DNA of 64,000 nucleotides from contig JANNYC010000189.1 in assembly GCA_031409895.1 (NCBI GenBank), positions 1,975 to 65,974 on the forward strand. The letters are read 5' to 3'. A model generated the notes under the pieces. It had not been told where the DNA came from and ran no database searches. It was given only the letters and a program-made list of their open reading frames with translations. The position numbers and the translations under genes were made by a program. Every line of letters begins with the position of its first letter. The first letter of the stretch is position 1. This DNA is from Planctomycetota bacterium (GTDB lineage Bacteria > Planctomycetota > Planctomycetia > Pirellulales > Pirellulaceae). Shown in pieces: positions 1 to 64,000 of this stretch.

Positions 1-1
1 G

Positions 2-1078
2 GGTGATCGGATTCGCGTTGGGTTCATCTCGCGACATTTCCGCAATCACACGATTGGCCGACTGAACCTTGGTGTGGTCGAAAAGTTGCCTCGCGACCGA
101 TTTGAAGTCGTCGTGATTTCCGTTGGCCACTACGACGATATGCTGGCCCAGCGATTCAAGGCGGCCGCCAGCCGTTACATCGAATTGCCGACGAATTTGC
201 CGACGATTCGCCAGCAAGTCACCGAACTCAACCTAGATATTTTAATGTTTTCCGATATCGGAATGGACACGCTGACTTATACCCTTGCCATGTCGCGCAT
301 GGCCCCGATTCAATGTGCGACGTGGGGGCATCCGATCACTTCGGGCAGCCCGGCGATGGATTACTTTATTTCCAGCAAGACACTGGAAGTCGCCGGAGCC
401 GACGATCACTATACGGAACGGCTTGAGCGATTCGGCGTGTTGAACGCATATTACTACCGGCCCGAAAAGCCAGCGATCAAAAAGCGTACGGACTTTGGAT
501 TGAGCCCGGACCGAAATTTGTATTTGTGTTTCCAAAACTTGTTCAAGTTCCATCCAGAATTCGATGTGATTTTGCGCGGAATTTTGGAGCGAGATCCCAA
601 AGCCGAAATGGTGTTCATGGAAGGCAAGCACCCGAAGTGGACGGACTTGCTCAAGGAACGCTGGAATCGGACGCTAGGGCGGCACATGGACCAAGTTCGC
701 TTTTTGCCCGGCCAATCACATCCCGATTTCATGAGTCTATATGCACTGTCCGACGTGTCCCTCGACCCGATTCATTTCGGCGGTGGAAACACGACGTACG
801 AAGCGCTCGCGGTCGGCTTGCCGGTCGTCACGCTTCCATCGCAATTTCTTCGTTGCCGAATTTCCGCCGCCCAATACGAGCAAATCGGCGTGCGCGACTT
901 TACCGTCGAGTCGCCGGACCAGTATGTCGACTTGGCGGTCAAGCTGGGAACGGATCGCGAATATCGTCGGCATGCCAGCGAACGAATACTCAGCGCTTGC
1001 GATGTGCTGTTCGAAGACCAGCGTGCCGTCGACGAATATTCTCGTTTCTTTGAGTCAGCTTATTCAGCACGGCACTAG
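2..1078 (+). CDS. O-GlcNAc-transferase-like glycosyltransferase (GT41/SPINDLY-type catalytic region), 5' end cut by window edge
   Basis: ORF 74..1078 stays open in the same frame back to base 2 (GDRIRVGFISRHFRNHTIGRL...). The blocks GHPxTSG, DxxLDPxxFGGGNTTxEAL and GxPVVTL resemble the C-terminal half of TPR-GT41 enzymes. Confidence 0.65.
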   Translation, partial: GDRIRVGFISRHFRNHTIGRLNLGVVEKLPRDRFEVVVISVGHYDDMLAQRFKAAASRYIELPTNLPTIRQQVTELNLDILMFSDIGMDTLTYTLAMSRMAPIQCATWGHPITSGSPAMDYFISSKTLEVAGADDHYTERLERFGVLNAYYYRPEKPAIKKRTDFGLSPDRNLYLCFQNLFKFHPEFDVILRGILERDPKAEMVFMEGKHPKWTDLLKERWNRTLGRHMDQVRFLPGQSHPDFMSLYALSDVSLDPIHFGGGNTTYEALAVGLPVVTLPSQFLRCRISAAQYEQIGVRDFTVESPDQYVDLAVKLGTDREYRRHASERILSACDVLFEDQRAVDEYSRFFESAYSARH

Positions 1079-1411
1079 TGCGCTTCCTTGCTAAAAATAG
1101 GCAAGCTAATTGGCCATGGCGAATTTGAGTACAAGCAAAGGAAATTTAGCGCTTTCTGGCATGCGTCGTTCGCCAGATTGCGTTGCAAAGCGTAGTACGG
1201 ACGACTATCCTATAGCCTACTGATCGGTTTCAAGCCGATACTCGCAATCCTCGATCAGGGATGTTTTCGGTACCTGGTTTGGTGTGCGGATGCTGCGTTT
1301 CGGCCACCACGAACCAGCGATTTTATTGATGCGTTGATCGCGCGGAATGAATTGAGTCGAACCAGTCTGTTTCCAGTTTATCTGCAATTCGTCGCGGAAT
1401 CGAAAAAAAAG

Positions 1412-50878: not shown

Positions 50879-53800
50879 TTATTTCACGGAGAGGTCGATA
50901 CTGTTGCTGTGGCTGTTGAATTCGGGGGCGTACATGCATTGGATTTGGGCGAAGCCAGTTTGGTATTGGCCGCGAAGTTGCACGCGAACGGAGTACTCGA
51001 AGACGTAGGTTCCACGCGGCAAGTAATCGATGAAGAAATGGCTCGCTGTATCACGCGTTGATTGAAAGTAGGCGAGGCCGTCTTGGAAATGGTATTGCGA
51101 CAGTACGTCGACGGGCTCCGTTCCGCTGCCGCGATAGTCTTTCATGTGGACGAATTCCATGTCGCGATCGACGCGAAGTTCAATCCGCGTCACCAGTTCA
51201 TCGCCGACACCGACCGAATCCGTCACTGGATTCAGAGTCGGACCCTTGTCGGTATTTTTCTTGACGTACAAGGATTTCGTTAGCTTGAGCGGCGTATCGG
51301 TGAATGACGTTACTTTGCTCATATCCTCAAAATACTGCCAATGAACGCTTCCCCAGGCGATATTCGGATTGGGATTCGTGACGCTGATTTGGGCAAGTTC
51401 GGGTTTCACATCGCCGGCGGCAAATCGATGTTCGTAGTAGCCTGTGCCGGCTTCGACATCTTCGGGTTTCAAAGTCTTTCCGGCGAGCGTGATTTCGACG
51501 AGTTTGTCGCTGGCCAGCCAATTCGTGCCGCGCCGCAACAGCGAGTAAACCGCGTCGGCGGTTGCTTTGGTTGTCTTCCAAGCCTGCGTTTGCTTTTGCT
51601 TGAGCAGCCAGATTTGCAATTCTTCGACGGCTTTGGCGTCGCTCGCGACTTCGTCGAAGACTTCGATCATCATCGCTTGAGTTTCGATTGGCGCGCGGTA
51701 CCACCACCAGGACTCTTCACCTTCGCGCCAAAACATTCCCATTTCATCTTCGGACAAGCTCCGTTCGCGAAGTGATTTCACAATGTCATTAGGTGTTGCC
51801 AAATCGCCGAACCGTTTGAGGGCCACGGCGAGGTGACCCTGCGGCAAGCGGTCGCCGAGTTTCGGCCAGTACGTTTTCGCTTGGCCGAGGAAATAATCGA
51901 CGGCAGTTTTGTGCTCAGCGGCTATCGGCTGATCCTTGAGGAAAAAGCTGCGACCGTAGAGGTACAGGCAAATCATCGGCGAGAGATGGTTGTCCTCTGG
52001 ATGACCGTGTCGCAAGATTTCGCGATACGTTTCGTCGATCCAGCGATCCAGTTCAGCCAGCGATTTCAGCGCGGTTGTCACGTCGACTTCGACGCCGAGA
52101 TGCCTCAAGCGGCCGAAACCGGTCGTGATGTAGAGAGTAATAAATTCGTTAGCCCGCCCGCCAGGAAACCACGGCCAAGTACCGTCGTCGTATTGCATTT
52201 GGGCCAGCTTGTTGGCGGCAGACTTCAATTCGCTGTCGAGGCGATTAGAGTCGAACAGAATGCCGACGTTGCGGCGAGCTTTGCTTTCGTCGTTCGATTC
52301 CAGCAGCCAGGGAGTCTCTTGAATCAGCAGTGCTTTGAGGTCTTGGTTTTTCGTAAGCGGGCTATCGAGCGCGTCGGTTCCGCGCCATTGATCGAACACG
52401 CGGCGAATTTTGGGATCGGAATTGGCGATATGCCGCGCAAGTGCATTCGCGTACAGCCGGTTGAAGACTTGTTCGCTGCATTCGTGCGGGAACTCAAGCA
52501 AATACGGTAACGCCATCACCGCATACCAAGCCGGGTTGCTGGTGACTTGGACGGTGAAGCTCTGATTGGCGAGCGAATCGGATTTCGACGCCTCGCGCAT
52601 TCGCGCAAAATCGAAATCGCGTTTTTGATTTCCGCGAATCGGCAGCGGCATGGACTCGGTGACCAAGACTCGGCGGCTGATGACCGGCAAATAGCCTTCT
52701 TCGCCGTCGGACAATCTTTCGGAGGCTCCGACCGCTTTGTAGACGAGTGTTCGCGCGCCGTCCGGGACTTTCAATAGCCAAGAAACCGATTGTGATTGCC
52801 CGGCGGGGATATCAAACGCCAAGTCGGTTTTTTCGTTGGCGAAGTCCGCGTCGACGGCGGTGAGCGAAACAGCGTCGGCCAGCGTCAATCGAACGGAGCC
52901 GGCTTGGCGGGTCGCGGATTGGTTGCTGACTTTGACCGTGAATTCGATGACGTCTTTTTCGCGCAAGAATCGCGGAGCGTTGGGTTGTACCATCAGCTCT
53001 TTGGCGGTAACAACTTTGTCCGTCAAGAATCCGCTGCGCAAATTTTTGTCGTGTGCAAAGCCCATGAATTTCCATTCGGTGAGGGCTTCGGGCATGGTGA
53101 ATTCCATGCGGACCGTGCCGTTTTCGCTAACCAAATGCGGGAAGAAAAAAGCGGTCTCGTTGAGGTTGGTTCGCGCGGAGATTTTGCTGAGGTCTGGCGG
53201 CGGCTGCGACACGGGCGCCTTGTTCTTCTCGTCAAGCGACTTTCCGCCACCGAAACCGCCACCAGAAGGGTCTTCTCCCTTTGCCGAATCGGACTTTTGC
53301 ATTTCGTTTCTTCCCTGGGCATCACTTTCTTCCATCGCCATTGCCATCGGCGCACCATTTGCCAGCGCCCGAGAACCTAGACCTCGCCGATAACCCTGCA
53401 TGAGGTTGGCGATTTCGTGTGGGAAGTGACGGTAGGTCAACTGGTCGTCGACGTAGGGCACGCTCCAGCCGTAATAGAAATGTTGAAGCGATTTGAGTTG
53501 GTTCTCAAAGCGTGAGTTGAAACGAATCTGCTCGGTCCGAAATACGCTGAAGCGTTGCAGCCAATTGTGCGGGAGAAACGCATCGAGCGAAGCATCGTAG
53601 AGCCCGGCCACCATTTCGGCAGTGACCTTTTCGGCGTCCGGTCCTGCTATGATCGCCGTCCAAGTCTCCTTGGCTCCCGGCTGAAGCTTGGAAACGAAAT
53701 GTTCCCATTTCACCTTGAGATCTTTATTGCTCCACGGAACGTCGACGCGCATTTGCGACAGGTACGCCCGATTCTCTCGAACGTAGCTCACGCGCAAGAT

Positions 53801-56800
53801 GAAGCCGCCGCGCATGGATTCGGAAACCGGGACGCGAATGACGTGCTGGGTCTGTTTGGGATCGGTCCAATACGATTTCAGAATCTTGCCGCGATGTTCG
53901 AGTTCGACGAACGCGGTTCCCGTTTCGTAACCCGTTCCCCAAAGAGCGACGAATTCTTGGCCCGGTTCCACGGTCCAATTCGGCGAAGTCAGCACGTTGG
54001 CAAGCTTCGTTGGGAACTGCGTCGCGGCAAGATCGTAGACTTGAAAAACGATTTCGTTGGTCACAAGTTTTCCAAACCGATCGTGCGATTCGATCACGGC
54101 GCGATAGGCACCAGCAGGTAGCGTTGCTTGGACGGTCGATTTGCCTTCGCCATTGGTTTTCCAAGCTTGCTCGTTGACTTGATCGCCGCTGGGCCAAGTG
54201 TTGATGTCAGACCAATCGGGAGGCGAGTCGGGAAACTTTTCAGCGGTAAAATCGAAGACCCCGCTGAAATAATACCAGCGACCGGATAACGCAGCCCGAT
54301 GGACTTTGTCGGGTGACTGAAGCTTGAACACGCGCAACGACCCGTCGACCGATTGCGCAATGCCGTCAAGCGTCGTTGTGCCGATGGTGAACTCAACCGG
54401 CTTGACGATGACTTGCCAAACATTTGCCGAAACGCTTGTGTCAAGTGCAACATAGCCGACGGTAACTGCGGTCGATGAGGATCGAGTCTCCCCCGTGGTG
54501 TCGGTGACGTCGGCGTAGACGGTGAATTGGAATTTCGGCTGCCCAGCTTTGGGAACGGTCCGATCGGGAGTCGCTGTGAATTGGATTTGGAAAGTGCCAT
54601 CGACTGCAGTCGTGGTCGTGCCGTGCGCGATTTCCTGACTTGTGGAAGTAATAGGCCACCACCAGCAGCGCCAATACCACCACCGCGGAAAACGGACTTC
54701 GCGCACGACGCGATATTGCACGGTAGCACCGTCGATTGGCGCGGATGTGTAAGCGGTTGCTTTGCCAGTCACGTCGACTTTGTCTTCGAGGCGGGGTGCT
54801 GCTTTGGGAGGATCAACCGTCACAAAGAATTTCGGACGTTTGTATTCCTCGACGTTGAATTGGGTTTGGCCGCTGGGGCCATCGACGACGTGCAGCGACA
54901 TCGTGCCCGTGCCGCGATCGCGCGGCGCCGTAAAGCTGCCGCTGATCGACCCGTAGGCGTTGGACGTAAATGTTTGCTTTTCGATTTCTTGGCCGTTGGC
55001 GTCATTCAACGCCACGGTCATGCGTCGATCGGCGAGCGTTTCATATTTATCGTTGACTTGGTCGAACTTTAATACGACGCCCTTGAATTGAACCGTTTGG
55101 CCAGGTCGATAGATTGAGCGGTCGGTAAAGAACACGGTCGAGTTATTTGAGGTATCCGATTGCCCATGGTCGTACATCCAAAGGCCGTCGAAGGTGGCCA
55201 AAGAATGGTTACCGGATCGGGCCACCAGATAATATCGACGTTGCTCTTCGCCTTTCCAGTGAAAGAACCCGTCTTCGCCGCTGCGAACCGTCGACACGAG
55301 TTCAAGCACTTCGCGGCGACCTGTGTTCTTCTGTTGCCAAATTTGGACTTCGGCCCCGCTGATGGGTTTTCCCGATTCGGCATTGAGAACGATTCCCTCG
55401 CCATCTTTGCTGGGTGTATCGCGAACGACGATTGCAAGGTCGCTGACCCAAAGCTCGCAGAAGGAGACGACGTTTGCAGCTTCGGAAAATTGTTCGTTAT
55501 GGCTGGCGATCAGATAGTACGAGCCGGGCGTCAGATCGTCGGGTGCTGGCAGCGATTCTTTTCGTTCTCGATAGTCGCTAGTTTCCGGCAGATCGCTGGA
55601 CCACTCGCGAACGGCTGGTTTGCCAAGCAGTTTCTGCCGTTGCTCGTATTCGATATTTTCTGGGCTCCAAGAGCCAGATTTGGCCCATTCGGCGAAGTCG
55701 AATGGTACCAATCGGAAGTAAACCTTGCGAACATTTCGATACATGACGCCGATCGTTGGCAGCGGCTTGGTCCAAACTCGCTCTGTGGTGATGGACGCTG
55801 ATGGAGCTTCGATGGCGGCGACGAGATTTTTGCATCGACTGGAAAAGCGGCTATTGGGAAAACGCTTGATGGCGGCAAGTGCGACTTCGCGTGCTTCCAC
55901 GAACTTGTTTTGCGAATGCAACAGGGCGCTTAAGTTCGCAGCGGCCGACGATGAAATTTCTTGAGCGATATTTGTGTCGATGAATTTCTTGAGAGCTGCG
56001 GCGTAACGAGCGGCTTTTTCCTCGCCGTAAGCTTCGGCATCGCCATACGCGAGCCGATGCAAGTCAGCATCTAGTCGCGCATGCGGCGAATCGTCCTCGC
56101 CGTGAAGGGTCAACAATTCCTGATGGAGACGAAGTGCCTTTACGATCGGCGATGTTGAGTTAGCCGGTAACTGCCAAGCGAGAAAGTCATCCGTGGAACC
56201 GAAGATCGCGGTATCGGCAGACAGGTCAAAAGCATTTTGTGGTCGAGTCCGCTGCTCTGCAATGCTGTAAAACTGAATTGCTTCCCGAGCCAAAAAATCG
56301 AACATCGTTGGACGGTATTCATCGGGTATCGTTCCGGCTTCCAGGAGTTCGTCGTAGTCCTTCACTGGAATTTTTTGCAGAGTCGCGCGATCGGCAAGTG
56401 CGTCCGTGAATAGCTTGTCGGCCTCGTCAAGAATTCGGCTCAGGTCCCAAGTGACGAAGTCCTCGCCCGGAGGAACCGACGTTTGCGTTCGCTGCATGAA
56501 CTGCCAACGATTCTGCTGATAATAATTCCAGTACCAATTCGCCAGAATGGCTTTGAGAACCGGCTGAGTCGGCGGTGGGTATTGGCCGATTTCCTTTTGT
56601 AGCAATTTGATCGAAACGGCTTGATCGCCACCTTCGATCTGGCCTTGAATTTGATATTTGCGACAGACGGCCCGAATGGCTTCGTCGTAGTCCTGATCGG
56701 AACTTGCGGATTTGATGATTGCTTCGAGTTCTTCGATCGCAGTTTTGGGGAGCGCTTTTTCCAGCGCGGCGTCAACTTTTTTCCACATCGCTTTTCGGTC

Positions 56801-56998
56801 GTCTCCATTCTTTTCATCGGCCAAGTCTGTCGAAACACTCGTCGAGCTATCGGGATTATTATCGGGCAAAACAGTGTTTGGTTTTGAGGATGCTCCGGTG
56901 TTACCAGGGCCTTTTGAGCTTGGATTTAGCACCGGTTGGCCCGCACAACCAATCGCGATGCACATGAGCAAATATCCAATCAGAACTTGTCGCATCAT
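50879..56998 (-). CDS. alpha-2-macroglobulin family lipoprotein (2039 aa) with a CxEQ thioester-type motif
   Basis: Lipobox LLMCIAIGC. Repeated MG-like beta-sandwich regions. FPHECSEQ (Cys1507, nt 52469..52480) sits in the alpha-helical TED-like region (YDDGTWPWF). Confidence 0.9.
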   Translation of the reverse strand: MMRQVLIGYLLMCIAIGCAGQPVLNPSSKGPGNTGASSKPNTVLPDNNPDSSTSVSTDLADEKNGDDRKAMWKKVDAALEKALPKTAIEELEAIIKSASSDQDYDEAIRAVCRKYQIQGQIEGGDQAVSIKLLQKEIGQYPPPTQPVLKAILANWYWNYYQQNRWQFMQRTQTSVPPGEDFVTWDLSRILDEADKLFTDALADRATLQKIPVKDYDELLEAGTIPDEYRPTMFDFLAREAIQFYSIAEQRTRPQNAFDLSADTAIFGSTDDFLAWQLPANSTSPIVKALRLHQELLTLHGEDDSPHARLDADLHRLAYGDAEAYGEEKAARYAAALKKFIDTNIAQEISSSAAANLSALLHSQNKFVEAREVALAAIKRFPNSRFSSRCKNLVAAIEAPSASITTERVWTKPLPTIGVMYRNVRKVYFRLVPFDFAEWAKSGSWSPENIEYEQRQKLLGKPAVREWSSDLPETSDYRERKESLPAPDDLTPGSYYLIASHNEQFSEAANVVSFCELWVSDLAIVVRDTPSKDGEGIVLNAESGKPISGAEVQIWQQKNTGRREVLELVSTVRSGEDGFFHWKGEEQRRYYLVARSGNHSLATFDGLWMYDHGQSDTSNNSTVFFTDRSIYRPGQTVQFKGVVLKFDQVNDKYETLADRRMTVALNDANGQEIEKQTFTSNAYGSISGSFTAPRDRGTGTMSLHVVDGPSGQTQFNVEEYKRPKFFVTVDPPKAAPRLEDKVDVTGKATAYTSAPIDGATVQYRVVREVRFPRWWYWRCWWWPITSTSQEIAHGTTTTAVDGTFQIQFTATPDRTVPKAGQPKFQFTVYADVTDTTGETRSSSTAVTVGYVALDTSVSANVWQVIVKPVEFTIGTTTLDGIAQSVDGSLRVFKLQSPDKVHRAALSGRWYYFSGVFDFTAEKFPDSPPDWSDINTWPSGDQVNEQAWKTNGEGKSTVQATLPAGAYRAVIESHDRFGKLVTNEIVFQVYDLAATQFPTKLANVLTSPNWTVEPGQEFVALWGTGYETGTAFVELEHRGKILKSYWTDPKQTQHVIRVPVSESMRGGFILRVSYVRENRAYLSQMRVDVPWSNKDLKVKWEHFVSKLQPGAKETWTAIIAGPDAEKVTAEMVAGLYDASLDAFLPHNWLQRFSVFRTEQIRFNSRFENQLKSLQHFYYGWSVPYVDDQLTYRHFPHEIANLMQGYRRGLGSRALANGAPMAMAMEESDAQGRNEMQKSDSAKGEDPSGGGFGGGKSLDEKNKAPVSQPPPDLSKISARTNLNETAFFFPHLVSENGTVRMEFTMPEALTEWKFMGFAHDKNLRSGFLTDKVVTAKELMVQPNAPRFLREKDVIEFTVKVSNQSATRQAGSVRLTLADAVSLTAVDADFANEKTDLAFDIPAGQSQSVSWLLKVPDGARTLVYKAVGASERLSDGEEGYLPVISRRVLVTESMPLPIRGNQKRDFDFARMREASKSDSLANQSFTVQVTSNPAWYAVMALPYLLEFPHECSEQVFNRLYANALARHIANSDPKIRRVFDQWRGTDALDSPLTKNQDLKALLIQETPWLLESNDESKARRNVGILFDSNRLDSELKSAANKLAQMQYDDGTWPWFPGGRANEFITLYITTGFGRLRHLGVEVDVTTALKSLAELDRWIDETYREILRHGHPEDNHLSPMICLYLYGRSFFLKDQPIAAEHKTAVDYFLGQAKTYWPKLGDRLPQGHLAVALKRFGDLATPNDIVKSLRERSLSEDEMGMFWREGEESWWWYRAPIETQAMMIEVFDEVASDAKAVEELQIWLLKQKQTQAWKTTKATADAVYSLLRRGTNWLASDKLVEITLAGKTLKPEDVEAGTGYYEHRFAAGDVKPELAQISVTNPNPNIAWGSVHWQYFEDMSKVTSFTDTPLKLTKSLYVKKNTDKGPTLNPVTDSVGVGDELVTRIELRVDRDMEFVHMKDYRGSGTEPVDVLSQYHFQDGLAYFQSTRDTASHFFIDYLPRGTYVFEYSVRVQLRGQYQTGFAQIQCMYAPEFNSHSNSIDLSVK

Positions 56999-58115: not shown

Positions 58116-58550
58116 TCAATCACCGCCGCCTGGCTCGCGCCGCATTCGCTTTTGGGTGGATTGTCGTTTTTTGTTATCGAGACGCCGTAGTTTGGAGGAT
58201 TTGGTTTTTCGCGTTGGGATGCGGCGTTTCGGAGGATGCTCAACCGACGCCAACATCGCACTCAGTTTTTCCAGACAATCGGCGACGTTGCGGCCTTGAT
58301 CGCGATACCGCTGGCTTGTGAGGATGAACTCGCCAAGTTTGTTGATCCGGCTGGCGAACTTGTGGCGAAAACGTTGCTTGACGCTGTCGGGAACGCTCGG
58401 CGATTCGATCACGGACCACGTCAGCACTCCCTTGGAGTTTACTTTGTTGACATTTTGTCCGCCGGGGCCCGATGAGCGAGCAAACGAAAAGCGAAATTCG
58501 TGCTTGGGGATACTGATCTGAGGAGAGACTCGCAACATCGAAAAGGCCAC
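58116..58550 (-). CDS. arfB: alternative ribosome-rescue factor ArfB (peptidyl-tRNA hydrolase, RF-1 domain)
   Basis: SSGPGGQNVNKVNSK (GGQ motif) plus a basic C-terminal tail. About 140 aa. Confidence 0.9.
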   Translation of the reverse strand: MAFSMLRVSPQISIPKHEFRFSFARSSGPGGQNVNKVNSKGVLTWSVIESPSVPDSVKQRFRHKFASRINKLGEFILTSQRYRDQGRNVADCLEKLSAMLASVEHPPKRRIPTRKTKSSKLRRLDNKKRQSTQKRMRREPGGGD

Positions 58551-60679: not shown

Positions 60680-60764
60680 TTGATTTCCTCGTGGGTGTGT
60701 CAGGCGGAATAACGTCAAGGTTAGGTGGCCATCCGACGCTCGGCCTCACGATTCAATCGCGCCT

Positions 60765-62355
60765 TGTAGCATCCGCAAAAAGCCGTCCCGCGTGAACCTT
60801 GCGAACGCGACACATATGACGGCGTAAAACGCCGCCAAGGCATTGGCGACTATTATTGGGTTTACATCGTTCCGGTCTTGGCGAAATTGTACGAATAAGT
60901 TTACACCCAAACCAAGCATAGCCAACGGGCTCCCAATTGTTCGATCAATCGATTGATTCATGCGTTCCACGCAGCGCAAACCTTCAAACGTAAGCAAGGC
61001 ATCGCGGTCTCGCGCAAGTCCATCGTGGACAACTCGGCGACAAGTTCTCGTTATGATAGCAGCTTTCCACCTTGGGGAAGCACAATGAAGCTTGCGATCA
61101 GGCCGTGGCATTTGTTGTTGATGGCGGTCGCGGGTTGGGCGAATCGCGAGCAACAAAGGCAGATCGAGTTCTTGCTCGCGACGATTGAAGTTCTGAAGGA
61201 GCATAACGGGAAGAAGCGAATTCTTCTTAGCGACGATCAGCGGCGGCGTTTGGCGGTCAAGGCCAAAATCCTCGGCCGCAAACTCTTGGCGGAAGTCAGC
61301 ACGCTGTTCTCGCCGGAAACGATCTTGCGCTGGCATCGCGAGTTGGTCGCTCGAAAATGGGATCATTCCCATAAACGCCAGAAAAAAGGTAGGCCTCCGA
61401 TCAGCGACGAGGTCCAGCAATTGGTGCTCCGCATGGCGCGGGAGAATCCGAATTGGGGTTACGATCGCATCGTCGGCGCGCTGGAAAATCTCGGCCATAT
61501 CATTTCCGACGAATCGGTTGGAAATATTCTTCGCGAACACGGCATCGAGCCCGCACCGAAACGCTGCCGACAATCGACTTGGCGAACATTTCTCAAGGCG
61601 CATTGGGACGTTCTGGCCGCGATTGACTTTACGACCATCGAGGTTTGGACTCGACACGGGTTGATCACGTTTTATCTCCTGTTCGCGATCCACCTTAAAT
61701 CTCGACGCGTGGAATTCGCCGGTTGCACCGTGTCGCCTGACGGAGCATGGATGAAACAGATCGCGAGGAACTTGACGTATGCTGGTGACGGATTTCTGAT
61801 CAATAAAAAATACGTCTTGATGGACCGCGACACAAAATTCACCGAATCGTTTCGGGCCACGCTGAAAGAGTCTGGTGCCAAACCGTTGCTCTTGCCCCCT
61901 CGTTCTCCGAACCTCTACGCGCACATCGAAAGGTTTATGGGAAGTATTAAATCCGAGTGCTTGAACCGAATGATCTTTTTCAATGAGACGCAATTGCGAA
62001 ACGCAATTCGCGAATATCTTGCCCACTATCACGCGGAACGAAACCATCAAGGTTTGGATAACCAACTCATTGAACCGCTCGACGAATCGTCCAATCCCGA
62101 AGGCGCTATCGTTTGCCGCACGCGATTGGGTGGCCTGCTCCGTTATTACCATCGCCGCGCCGCGTGATTGGTTCGTGTTCGAAACATTTCCCGAACCCTC
62201 GATGAGTTCGCTGCTGCGCCAACTCCGAATAAAGGATCGATTTCTCCGAGACATTTCCATATTTGCGAACGCACCCAACGCAATTATCGATCCTCTACAC
62301 CCCTTTACCATCGGAAAATTCCGCTCCGAATCCACGACGGACTTTTTTGACTACA
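60765..62355 (+). mobile_element. insertion sequence (IS481-like, single-ORF DDE/rve transposase); ends tentative
   Basis: The transposase ORF is inside. Tentative termini are TGTAGCATCCGCAAAAAGCCGTC (from 60765) and, read inward from 62355, TGTAGTCAAAAAAGTCCGTC. These match only imperfectly and need indels. Confidence 0.45.
61085..62167 (+). CDS. DDE (integrase-core, rve) transposase
   Basis: N-terminal HTH region (GRPPISDEVQQLVLRMARENPNWGYDRIVGAL). DD35E-like triad in AIDFTT / LMDRDTKF / AHIERFMGSIKSE. Confidence 0.9.
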   Translation: MKLAIRPWHLLLMAVAGWANREQQRQIEFLLATIEVLKEHNGKKRILLSDDQRRRLAVKAKILGRKLLAEVSTLFSPETILRWHRELVARKWDHSHKRQKKGRPPISDEVQQLVLRMARENPNWGYDRIVGALENLGHIISDESVGNILREHGIEPAPKRCRQSTWRTFLKAHWDVLAAIDFTTIEVWTRHGLITFYLLFAIHLKSRRVEFAGCTVSPDGAWMKQIARNLTYAGDGFLINKKYVLMDRDTKFTESFRATLKESGAKPLLLPPRSPNLYAHIERFMGSIKSECLNRMIFFNETQLRNAIREYLAHYHAERNHQGLDNQLIEPLDESSNPEGAIVCRTRLGGLLRYYHRRAA

Positions 62356-62402: not shown

Positions 62403-62876
62403 TTAACCTTTGTTGCCGTCCCTTCTCCATCGCTGCAATGACGTGTCAATCAAGAAACGACTGAATGATGAGAAGATTTGGCTAAAATGCGACGCGCCCT
62501 CTAAGTACTGAAAAACAGGAGGATCATCGCCTGAAGTAAGCGAGAAAAAAAGAAACTGGTACCCTTGATGCATTGAAAATACAAAATCGCTATTTCTTAA
62601 TTGAAGTTTCGTTCCGCAACATTGAAGGAGTTCGCGCCCCCAACTATTGAGCTTAAGAACTTGGGGATAGAAAAAGTCTGTACCGCGGTAAAATCCTCCA
62701 GCATGTTTGCCCATTCGTCGAAGGAAGCAAACATATGCGGCGGGAAGTGGACCATTTCCAGTACGCGCAACCTCACTTATTTCCTTTTCGGAACATCCAA
62801 CAAGTGCACCATTTTGACAACTGTCAAAGCGAGTCAAGTTGGCGACTACTACATCCATGTCGGTTTCGTGGTTCAT
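62403..62876 (-). CDS. SMI1/KNR4 (SUKH-1) family immunity protein
   Basis: 157 aa. The SUKH-like pattern (EKEISEVARTGNGPLPAAYVCFLRRMG) and a start ATG overlapping the stop of the upstream toxin (ATGA). Confidence 0.75.
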   Translation of the reverse strand: MNHETDMDVVVANLTRFDSCQNGALVGCSEKEISEVARTGNGPLPAAYVCFLRRMGKHAGGFYRGTDFFYPQVLKLNSWGRELLQCCGTKLQLRNSDFVFSMHQGYQFLFFSLTSGDDPPVFQYLEGASHFSQIFSSFSRFLIDTSLQRWRRDGNKG

Positions 62877-64000
62877 AGTGGATAAATGTTACCATGACTC
62901 AAAACGAGATTTATCTTGGGATTTCGTTGCCGAAATTGCTCGATGATGCTACCGCACGAATCGCAGGGTTCTCGCTCGGTAAAAAGCCTAATTGTACCAA
63001 ATGAGTCTGGGCTCAAGTTATTATCTAAGTTCGCAAGAATAATTGCCTCGGCATCAACATCCCGGAAATGCGTGCCAACCCAATCATAGCGAAAATTAGA
63101 AAACTGGGGCTTTGGCAAAAAACCCGGCCATTGCGTACTTGTGCTTACCGCACGCATTTCCATTTGGATGCCACTTCCCAAGTCGACTTCTGCGTAAGCA
63201 ATATTTTTGAAGTCAGGAACATTAAACATCTTCCGCAGTTGAATTACCCGACGAAGGCCGTCACCTCGTCGAATAGGATTCAGAAACTGTGCCGCCACTG
63301 TTTCGGCAATTTCTTGAGTAATTTCCGTGCTCGCATTACGCGCCGGTCTAAGAGAAATTCCGTTTTCCCAAAGTGAACCAAATGCCTTTAATAGCTTTCC
63401 AACCAAAAAGCCTATTCCCAGCCCAATTAGTTGATTTTTTAGAAACGAGAGGAGTATTTCAGTTGTCGAGCTATTATTCGCGAGTCCTTGGATTGCAGTT
63501 GTCGTTGCGTCAAAGGCCGCTCCATATGCTGCAAGCGAGTAATTGCGGAGCCCTGTCGCAATACTAAACCCTGCAAAAAATCCAACAAGGAATTTCCCGC
63601 TTGGATCGACGCCTTGGATCGGGTCACCGTGCACGTAAAGATACTTATGTAGCGATTGCGGATCGGAGTTGTTGCCTCGGATTGGATCGCGGCTGAGTAA
63701 CCTGCCGGTGCGGGGGTCGTAGAATCGGGCACGGAGGTAAAGGAGTTGAGTGTTTGCGTCGAACGATTCGCCGGTGTAGAGATAGGACGTGAGCGCGGCG
63801 GAGGCGGGGAGATTGAGGAGGTTGCCGTAGGCGTCGAAGTGGAAGAGTTGCAAAATGTTGGCGGCGGATTGGACCACGGCGGCGAGGGCGTTGTACAAGA
63901 CGCGGACGGAGCCGTGGCCGTCGCTGCCGAAGTAATGAGTCACGCCCGAGTTCCAGCCGTCTTCGGGACCGATTGAGCCGTTCCCGCTGGTGTCGATTTT
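62873..64000 (-). CDS. Rhs-family polymorphic toxin, 3' part only: Rhs core end plus C-terminal deaminase-like toxin domain
   Basis: The frame is open to the window edge. The Rhs core end is YLYTGESFD...LYLRARFYDPRTGRLLSRDP...LYVHGDPIQGVDPSG (to about 63596). The 240-aa CT has DAE (63047..63055) and PCDSC (62954..62968) 28 residues apart. Confidence 0.85.
   Translation of the reverse strand, partial: KIDTSGNGSIGPEDGWNSGVTHYFGSDGHGSVRVLYNALAAVVQSAANILQLFHFDAYGNLLNLPASAALTSYLYTGESFDANTQLLYLRARFYDPRTGRLLSRDPIRGNNSDPQSLHKYLYVHGDPIQGVDPSGKFLVGFFAGFSIATGLRNYSLAAYGAAFDATTTAIQGLANNSSTTEILLSFLKNQLIGLGIGFLVGKLLKAFGSLWENGISLRPARNASTEITQEIAETVAAQFLNPIRRGDGLRRVIQLRKMFNVPDFKNIAYAEVDLGSGIQMEMRAVSTSTQWPGFLPKPQFSNFRYDWVGTHFRDVDAEAIILANLDNNLSPDSFGTIRLFTEREPCDSCGSIIEQFRQRNPKINLVLSHGNIYPL

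Follow-up and report, generated by a model that had tools for sequence, protein, structure and literature searches.

The minus-strand locus at one end of the window, by which we mean the whole stretch of 64,000 nucleotides of a Planctomycetota bacterium that was analysed, very probably represents the 3' end of a polymorphic-toxin gene of the Rhs type with a deaminase tip of the BURPS668_1122 family (Pfam PF14424), followed by a SUKH-1 immunity gene. Judged by its sequence, the toxin is an ordinary additional member of this family from a rare subclade and not a new kind of deaminase. It appears mildly unusual with regard to the rare subclade, an Ile at the helix-2 position of the family Lys and a private, hydrophobic and glycine-rich linker of 81 aa. 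The 240-aa tip can be read as this linker plus a minimal, four-stranded deaminase of approximately 160 aa.

The reading frame of the toxin is open on the minus strand from position 64000, i.e. the window edge, to a TGA at 62875..62873, which leaves 375 aa visible. Residue numbers refer to this 375-aa frame; the original prediction used an internal GTG ORF of 356 aa, in which D316, E318, C346 and C349 were named D297, E299, C327 and C330, respectively. The first 135 aa (63596..64000, minus strand) represent the C-terminal end of the Rhs/YD-repeat shell of a gene that runs past the window edge. The TIGR03696 model (Rhs_assc_core) matches aa 56-135 (63835..63596) with 66.3 bits compared to a cut-off of 32.5, in an alignment that extends up to profile position 75 of 76 (aa 135). 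The Rhs core end reads ...LRARFYDPRTGRLLSRDPIRG...YVHGDPIQGVDPSG and the shell terminates in the core motif ...YDPRTGRLLSRDPIRG...GDPIQGVDPSG; a RDPIRG...VDPSG motif of the DPxG...DPxG type is situated immediately ahead of the variable tip. The DPSG corresponds to aa 132-135 (63607..63596), and the 240-aa C-terminal part (CT) begins at K136 (63595). The open frame, the core boundary and the length of the CT were all found as originally described, and the profile match together with the core motif ahead of a variable tip supports the prediction that the protein carries the tip of an Rhs polymorphic toxin.

Furthermore, Logan contig L001, which was independently assembled from a sequencing run, agrees with the window over 1703 nt without a single mismatch and lengthens the Rhs ORF by 290 aa to 665 aa, i.e. 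the frame is open over at least 665 aa. YD-type motifs are visible by eye in L001, where the YD-repeat model TIGR01643 scored 15.8, which is exactly its cut-off, and Pfam RHS_repeat scored 13.7 compared to a cut-off of 22. An exact-DNA scan of metagenome contigs returned no longer contig that would extend the Rhs gene upstream. In characterised Rhs and Tc proteins, the DPxG...DPSG core motif acts as an aspartyl autoprotease, by which the C-terminal tip is cut loose within the shell. Here too, cleavage at the core motif would release the tip within the YD-repeat shell.

The linker of 81 aa (K136-S216; 63353..63595, minus strand) connects the Rhs cleavage motif to the toxin domain, and no domain was detected when it was scanned with Pfam. 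Two of its segments are hydrophobic and rich in glycine, namely FLVGFFAGFSIATGL and LIGLGIGFLVGKLL, the latter with a GxxxGxxxG pattern. Two hydrophobic segments behind the core had indeed been predicted, but their hydrophobicity is no more than moderate (Kyte-Doolittle means over 15 aa of 1.4-1.7) and they are short, which makes them borderline candidates for membrane spans. When the whole 240-aa tip was modelled with AlphaFold, four linker helices were obtained with low confidence (block-mean pLDDT of 38-72). The linker is kept, at 44-45% identity, only in P0011 and P0012, two further proteins of the Rhs-deaminase type, which were also the only matches of a linker HMM among 154 retrieved proteins; the linker alignment found no match in a collection of 5.8 billion proteins. 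The linker may represent a membrane-interaction or translocation module, and as such it may aid the membrane passage of the tip. The tip and the immunity gene form a low-GC cassette that was joined by recombination to an Rhs core of higher GC, as shown by the GC content, which drops in a sharp step at the core/tip boundary from 0.56-0.60 in the Rhs core (0.598 for the shell part, aa 1-135) to 0.44 in the linker, 0.459 in the toxin and 0.447 in the immunity gene.

The toxin domain itself comprises L217-L375 (62876..63352, minus strand). PF14424 (Toxin-deaminase) matched well beyond chance, i.e. the 375-aa fragment with 55.0 bits (E = 1.3e-14) and the last 159 aa with 58.7 bits (E = 9.5e-16), compared to a cut-off of 29.6, in an alignment that spans only profile positions 79-141 of 146. 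The AlphaFold model of the domain (pLDDT 85.5, pTM 0.78) shows the order Hel-1, Str-1, Str-2, an insert of 31 aa, Hel-2, Str-3, Hel-3, Str-4 and then the protein end. In this model, strand 2 runs up to model residue 69, helix 2 begins at residue 101 and the chain stops 6 residues past strand 4, i.e. the insert that separates Str-2 from Hel-2 and the C-terminal truncation that are expected of the BURPS668_1122 clade are both present. When the model was compared to the PDB using Foldseek, the best 50 matches were all cytosine deaminases of the AID/APOBEC family, at E values of about 2e-4 and TM scores of 0.4-0.5. Searches of PDB sequences found no family member: phmmer gave weak APOBEC3 matches at E of about 0.1 and the profile search nothing relevant. 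Because the Pfam match, the AlphaFold model and the Foldseek matches agree, the assignment of the CT to the deaminase fold is well supported, as the original prediction had claimed and in line with the profile and structure searches proposed there. Relatives are numerous at the family level, since a profile search returned 1346 representatives at E<=1e-3 and PF14424 was found in all 122 scanned relatives from the single-sequence and profile searches. The nearest relatives are 40-51% identical, and the subclade profile gave 9 hits in 5.8 billion proteins. A motif scan of genome contigs, whose pattern does not fit the window's own sequence, returned a single locus, from Seinonella peptonophila.

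The catalytic residues can be predicted from two motifs. The helix-2 motif R313-D-V-D316-A-E318-A-I320 (RDVDAEAI, aa 313-320; 63041..63064, minus strand; family consensus RxxDxExK) contains D316 (63055..63053, minus strand) as predicted metal ligand and E318 (63049..63047, minus strand) as predicted proton shuttle, and the helix-3 motif P345-C346-D-S-C349 (PCDSC, aa 345-349; 62954..62968, minus strand), which together with the following G-S gives CxxCxS, contributes two predicted Cys metal ligands. The model helices begin right behind D316 and C346. Both motifs of the proposed deaminase pattern are present, but the spacing from E318 to P345 is 26 residues and not 28. Conservation was tallied over 158 domains from the best relatives. 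In helix 2, the Arg occurs in 146 of them, the Asp in 150 (His in 4), the Glu in 157 and the Lys in 117 (Ile in 8), while in helix 3 the first Cys is found in 157, the second in 156 and the Ser before the second Cys in 145 domains. The close relative P0012 has a His at the position of the Asp, which fits a role of this residue as metal ligand.

The Asp at the first ligand position had been taken as a sign of a new subfamily or of a changed chemistry. This view did not survive the comparison with the literature: the Asp is not novel, because DxE in place of H/CxE is known from the literature as diagnostic of the BURPS668_1122 clade, which Iyer et al. (2011) defined by "RxxDxExK ... CxxCxS" (PMC3239186). 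Moreover, the cut-off of PF14424 is passed and the Asp is shared by most of the tallied domains. One could still argue that the Asp makes the protein a zinc-less or catalytically altered pseudo-deaminase, which acts by binding or by changed chemistry, given that the classical H/C-x-E ... PCxxC deaminases do not use Asp as ligand and that the PDB searches gave no DxE deaminase structure. We regard this as very improbable. The high frequency of the Asp together with the near-invariant Glu and both Cys represents the pattern of a maintained, not a decayed, active site, the Asp is exchanged for His in some few members, one of them a close relative, PF14424 members are reported to be active (preprint 10.1101/2023.05.21.541555) and the Asp feature has been on record since 2011 (PMC3239186). 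In such a maintained active site, Asp316, Cys346 and Cys349 would act as metal ligands, with Glu318 as the proton shuttle, as suggested by family conservation and the model.

The second deviation in helix 2 concerns the family Lys. Its position is occupied by Ile320 in our toxin, whereas the nearest relatives carry His, Leu or Ile. The Lys varies within the PF14424 family itself; hence, Ile320 is a subclade difference and no reason to exclude the protein from the family. A conserved polar residue two positions past the catalytic Glu, close to the substrate pocket, has been described as characteristic of the clade (PMC3239186), and with the replacement of the Lys by Ile the substrate preference could differ from that of the tested members.

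Delivered into a neighbouring cell, the domain would most likely deaminate cytosine in ssDNA, with toxic and mutagenic consequences, if it behaves like other PF14424 members, for which ssDNA C deamination was reported in a base-editor reporter (preprint 10.1101/2023.05.21.541555). It is conceivable, though unlikely, that this rare subclade of the same fold and family acts on another substrate, i.e. that it deaminates RNA/tRNA, dsDNA, adenine or free nucleotides and not ssDNA cytosine. The loss of the clade-typical polar residue near the substrate pocket (PMC3239186) would be consistent with such a shift, a BURPS668_1122 domain has been loosely annotated as a potential adenosine deaminase (PMC10469887), and the preference for ssDNA or dsDNA varies between related families of bacterial toxin deaminases. 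However, the deamination of C in ssDNA is the sole activity reported for PF14424 (10.1101/2023.05.21.541555), ssDNA cytosine deaminases are the best structural matches, and nothing in the sequence or the model specifically indicates another substrate. It would surprise us even more if the subclade displayed a substrate or sequence-context specificity unseen in bacterial toxin deaminases (e.g. for dsDNA, for RNA or for context-independent editing with a four-stranded core of approximately 140 aa) and if, in addition, the linker were an undescribed self-translocation module. The features behind this idea are the predicted Asp-Cys-Cys ligands, the hydrophobic residue in place of the helix-2 Lys and the glycine-zipper-like private linker.

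The preferred reading of the locus as a toxin of the known family also includes its partner gene. The SMI1/KNR4 (SUKH-1) gene, which encodes the putative cognate immunity protein of 157 aa (62403..62876, minus strand), matched PF09346 (SMI1_KNR4) with 39.5 bits compared to a cut-off of 25.4 over profile positions 1-124 of 125. Its ATG (62876..62874) overlaps the TGA of the toxin gene (62875..62873) in an ATGA at 62876..62873 with the junction ccactATGAacc, as had been noted before, and this overlap makes a translational coupling of the two genes probable. SUKH homologues (34-45% identity) are encoded directly downstream of deaminase homologues in seven of the eight related loci (L003-L009), and the N-terminal delivery modules differ among the loci that share the deaminase-SUKH linkage. 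Since the linkage is kept in these seven loci, the proposed role of the SUKH-1 protein as cognate immunity to a deaminase is supported. In line with this conserved linkage, the SUKH-1 protein would bind and block the toxin in the producer cell.

With regard to the surroundings, the immunity gene is followed, 235 nt further downstream, by the gene of an IS-type transposase (HTH_32 + rve_3), and a search for terminal inverted repeats of this IS gave none. Pfam scans of 23 other ORFs in the window revealed housekeeping domains only and no taxon-diagnostic family. A reading of the locus as a defence system was rejected, as PADLOC reported nothing relevant.

Nevertheless, the cassette might be a decaying or orphan remnant that is no longer deployed, with an Rhs gene that is truncated, disrupted upstream or silenced. 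Such a scenario could draw on the transposase at a distance of 235 nt, on the Rhs N-terminus, which lies outside both the window and L001, and on the closest cassette elsewhere (L003/L008), which has a premature stop ahead of the last strand. We consider it quite improbable for the present locus, in which the frame is open over at least 665 aa, the domain is complete with every catalytic residue intact, the ATGA overlap of toxin and immunity gene is preserved and an independent assembly of a sequencing run gave the identical sequence.

Generally, our analysis adds one Rhs-deaminase-SUKH cassette to a family that was described in 2011 and as it stands this matters little, apart from correcting the notion that an Asp ligand is unusual. 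PF14424 is still a family without solved structure, and the reporter screen provides the sole published functional data that we found. The domain is very compact, with about 140-160 aa and four strands, and it belongs to a rare subclade that differs at a pocket-lining residue. The compactness, the rare subclade and the structure gap make it a reasonable, though not a special, candidate in the search for small base-editing deaminases or for the first Asp-Cys-Cys structure, which would be the first such metal site in the cytidine-deaminase fold.

Among the known systems, the AID/APOBEC proteins share the region of helix 2, strand 3 and helix 3, which aligns with our model, as well as a weak sequence similarity across LSPxx...PCxxC. 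However, they own an HxE motif and an extra helix 4 and strand 5, both of which are absent here, and the TM scores reach only 0.4-0.5. The APOBEC-type Pfam models remained below their thresholds (APOBEC_N 21.8-24.3 compared to 25, SNAD4 21.8-24.0 compared to 27 and NAD1 20.1-22.3 compared to 27), and together with the DxE motif these scores led us to reject a membership in AID/APOBEC; the resemblance exists at the fold level only.

More similar in their biology are DddA (BaDTF1, SCP1.201), SsdA (BaDTF2, DYW-like) and DddB (BaDTF3, Pput_2613), which like the predicted toxin-immunity pair described here are interbacterial toxins of the deaminase fold with cognate immunity. They perform mutagenic cytosine deamination of DNA and are used as base editors. 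Their domains are larger and five-stranded with solved structures, in contrast to the four strands found here and to PF14424, which has none. DddA itself is the His form of SCP1.201. According to Iyer et al. (2011), the DYW clade has HxE, Pput_2613 HTE and SCP1.201 [HD]xE (PMC3239186), whereas the present toxin has DxE. Membership in SCP1.201, DYW-like or Pput_2613 was rejected, as none of them gave a Pfam match at E<=10, and neither phmmer nor the profile search matched the PDB sequences of DddA, SsdA or DddB.

The Tox-deaminase of the Salmonella SPI-6 T6SS, a BURPS668_1122-family protein accompanied by SUKH_5 (PMC10469887), resembles our locus in having a putative immunity protein of the SUKH superfamily and an Rhs-rich polymorphic-toxin region. 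It differs, because the proteins found in Salmonella are small fragments of 86-106 aa, either stand-alone or orphan, that are unfused to an Rhs core (PMC10469887). The features published for the BURPS668_1122 clade, i.e. DxE, the Str-2/Hel-2 insert, C-terminal truncation, Rhs carriers and SUKH immunity, the latter two thus already on record for it, are spread over three studies (PMC3239186, PMC3482391, PMC10469887), and the phyletic list of the clade in PMC3239186 is without planctomycetes. The toxin resembles the BURPS668_1122 clade of Iyer, Zhang, Rogozin & Aravind (2011) in passing the Pfam model, in being Rhs-borne and in being paired with SUKH, and it differs from the clade in general by the Ile for Lys two positions past the catalytic Glu and by the private hydrophobic linker before the domain.

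The minus-strand Rhs toxin frame runs open from the window edge at 64000 to a TGA at 62875..62873, giving 375 visible residues, of which 56-135 represent the Rhs-associated core (TIGR03696, 66.3 bits; cut-off 32.5 bits). The core terminates with ...YDPRTGRLLSRDPIRG...YVHGDPIQGVDPSG, its DPSG core-end motif lies at 63607..63596 (minus strand), and the variable tip starts with the next residue, K136, at 63595. The Rhs N-terminus is located outside the window, and an exact-DNA scan of metagenome contigs did not recover it; in L001, a 2573-nt contig from the public sequencing run SRR20217191 (Logan) that is identical to the window over a 1703-nt overlap, the ORF reaches 665 aa and includes probable YD-type repeats. 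The open frame, the core end and both hydrophobic stretches of the original prediction could be located as proposed, and its residues D297, E299, C327 and C330 are present as D316, E318, C346 and C349 in the 375-aa frame.

The last 159 aa of the toxin score 58.7 bits on PF14424 ('Toxin-deaminase, the BURPS668_1122 family'; cut-off 29.6 bits), AID/APOBEC-type Pfam models stay slightly under their own thresholds, and the Pfam scan of the tip gave no match to SCP1.201, DYW or Pput_2613. Among 5.8 billion proteins, the single sequence found 2 matches and the subclade profile 9, eight of them with a precomputed PF14424 annotation and the remaining one a truncated fragment; the subclade of the window toxin is rare. 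Searched exhaustively with a profile, 1.84 billion cluster representatives yielded 1346 matches at E<=1e-3, 388 of which reach E<=1e-10, and all 122 scanned proteins among the best matches hit PF14424. The AlphaFold model of the toxin domain, calculated from a 10-sequence alignment (pLDDT 85.5, pTM 0.78), shows the order helix 1, strands 1-2, a 31-residue insert, helix 2, strand 3, helix 3, strand 4 and protein end, with helix 2 beginning immediately past D316 and helix 3 immediately past C346. In Foldseek against the PDB, the top 50 matches were exclusively AID/APOBEC-family cytosine deaminases (E about 2e-4, TM 0.4-0.5), which together with the Pfam score and the model supports the deaminase fold initially proposed. 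Our sequence and profile searches found no solved structure for the BURPS668_1122 family, which is still without structure and detailed biochemistry.

The active site is predicted from RDVDAEAI in helix 2 (aa 313-320) and PCDSC in helix 3 (aa 345-349); the spacing from Glu to Pro-Cys, previously counted as 28 residues, is 26. Among 158 domains taken from the best relatives, the Asp is found in 150 (His in 4), preceded at -3 by Arg in 146, whereas Glu and the first Cys each occur in 157, the second Cys in 156 and the Ser before it in 145. Lys at +2 after the Glu is more variable (117/158; Ile in 8). The window toxin keeps the family R, D, E and C-D-S-C-G-S, the insert and the truncation; its sole departure is Ile at the Lys position, where the closest relatives have His, Leu or Ile. 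With all tested defining features except this variable Lys, the tip very probably belongs to the BURPS668_1122 family. The Asp had been taken as a possible sign of a new subfamily or altered chemistry, but an Asp at the metal-ligand position is already known for this clade (Iyer et al., PMC3239186), and its prevalence among the relatives likewise speaks against that proposal. Hence, the Asp ligand, which motivated the original interest, is not new. P0012, a 716-aa Rhs-deaminase representative closely related to the window toxin, has His-Ser-Glu in place of Asp-x-Glu (motif WQYHSEAILLENL), and since His replaces Asp here, the position would fit a metal ligand. This protein has the same linker as the window toxin and represents a natural D-to-H swap inside the subclade.

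The putative SMI1_KNR4/SUKH-1 immunity gene (62403..62876, minus strand; Pfam, 39.5 bits, cut-off 25.4 bits) shares ATGA at its start with the toxin stop, so that the predicted overlap can be read directly in the sequence. SUKH immunity for BURPS668_1122 deaminases was already given by Zhang et al. 2012 (PMC3482391), and in Salmonella SPI-6 a Tox-deaminase of this family stands beside a SUKH_5 gene (PMC10469887). SUKH homologues (34-45% identical to the window protein) lie directly 3' of deaminase homologues (33-44%) in seven of eight independent related loci, L003-L009. The eighth, the Seinonella HINT-toxin locus L002, contains other small genes instead. There (Seinonella peptonophila NZ_FQVL01000024.1, L002 6616..11208), a HINT-domain polymorphic toxin precedes orphan fragments of deaminase C-termini (DSE...CVSC) and two pairs of small non-SUKH genes duplicated in tandem, which is an orphan-cassette array with another immunity type.

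Carriers of the deaminase-SUKH pair include Rhs cores (window, L008, P0011, P0012), other N-termini in L009, and in L004 (35..7287) a PF14424 deaminase-SUKH pair (P0008) adjoining Pvc16_N and AAA ATPase genes, which suggests that an extracellular contractile injection system, not an Rhs protein, carries it as cargo. A polymorphic-toxin cassette is expected to vary its carriers in this way. GC content is 0.60 in the window part of the Rhs core (63596..64000) and 0.56 in its L001 extension (1..1275), and falls to 0.44-0.46 over linker, toxin and immunity gene (62403..63595; window mean 0.528). This sharp step lies exactly at the core/tip boundary and fits a cassette in which tip and immunity were gained together by recombination. 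The closest cassette elsewhere, P0002 (L003 153..917, L008 31..1194), is interrupted in two independent metagenome contigs by an in-frame stop immediately ahead of its final beta-strand (...KRHP*IKVVVSSGP*). The SUKH gene after it is intact, and the toxin may have been inactivated or attenuated; the L008 copy is carried by an Rhs core whose linker differs and is not hydrophobic.

The 81-aa linker between DPSG and the deaminase has no Pfam match, is only moderately hydrophobic, contains a GxxxGxxxG pattern (GLGIGFLVG) and is modelled by AlphaFold as four helices with low confidence. It is kept at 44-45% identity in P0011 and P0012, the two other Rhs-deaminase proteins, and was found nowhere else by a linker HMM on 154 retrieved proteins or by a linker alignment against 5.8 billion proteins; judged by these comparisons, it is private to these three proteins. 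Other contact-dependent toxins have entry domains, and we infer from this analogy alone that the linker may plausibly help to cross the inner membrane of the target.

An IS-type transposase ORF (60953..62167, plus strand; 404 aa, HTH_32 and rve_3 integrase core) lies next to the cassette, its end 235 nt away from the immunity gene on the downstream side. A search for terminal inverted repeats at this ORF was negative; the independent short-read contig L001 breaks at window position 62298, which is what a repeat boundary would be expected to cause. A 529-aa ORF antisense to the transposase (60746..62335) is probably spurious. Unrelated to the toxin are a 2039-aa bacterial alpha-2-macroglobulin (50879..56998, minus strand; MG2, A2M bait region, A2M, bMG10) and a 144-aa RF-1-domain protein with a GGQ motif (58116..58550, minus strand), which looks like an ArfB-type peptidyl-tRNA hydrolase.

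In the mechanism we propose, the tip would be enclosed in the Rhs shell and freed by the core aspartyl-protease motif, and the delivered minimal deaminase would deaminate a nucleic-acid base by means of Glu318 and a metal held by Asp-Cys-Cys, while the SUKH protein would shield the producer cell. The most likely substrate, held less firmly than the family assignment, would be cytosine in ssDNA, because a structure-clustering study that used a base-editor reporter (preprint 10.1101/2023.05.21.541555) states that members of PF14424 'possessed ssDNA cytidine deamination activity', and because the best structural matches are ssDNA deaminases. The characterised toxin deaminases DddA (SCP1.201/BaDTF1), SsdA (DYW-like/BaDTF2) and DddB (Pput_2613/BaDTF3) all belong to other clades; the window toxin would work in a similar manner but represents a separate family, and its shared features, the variable Lys apart, make it a further probable member of an established one.
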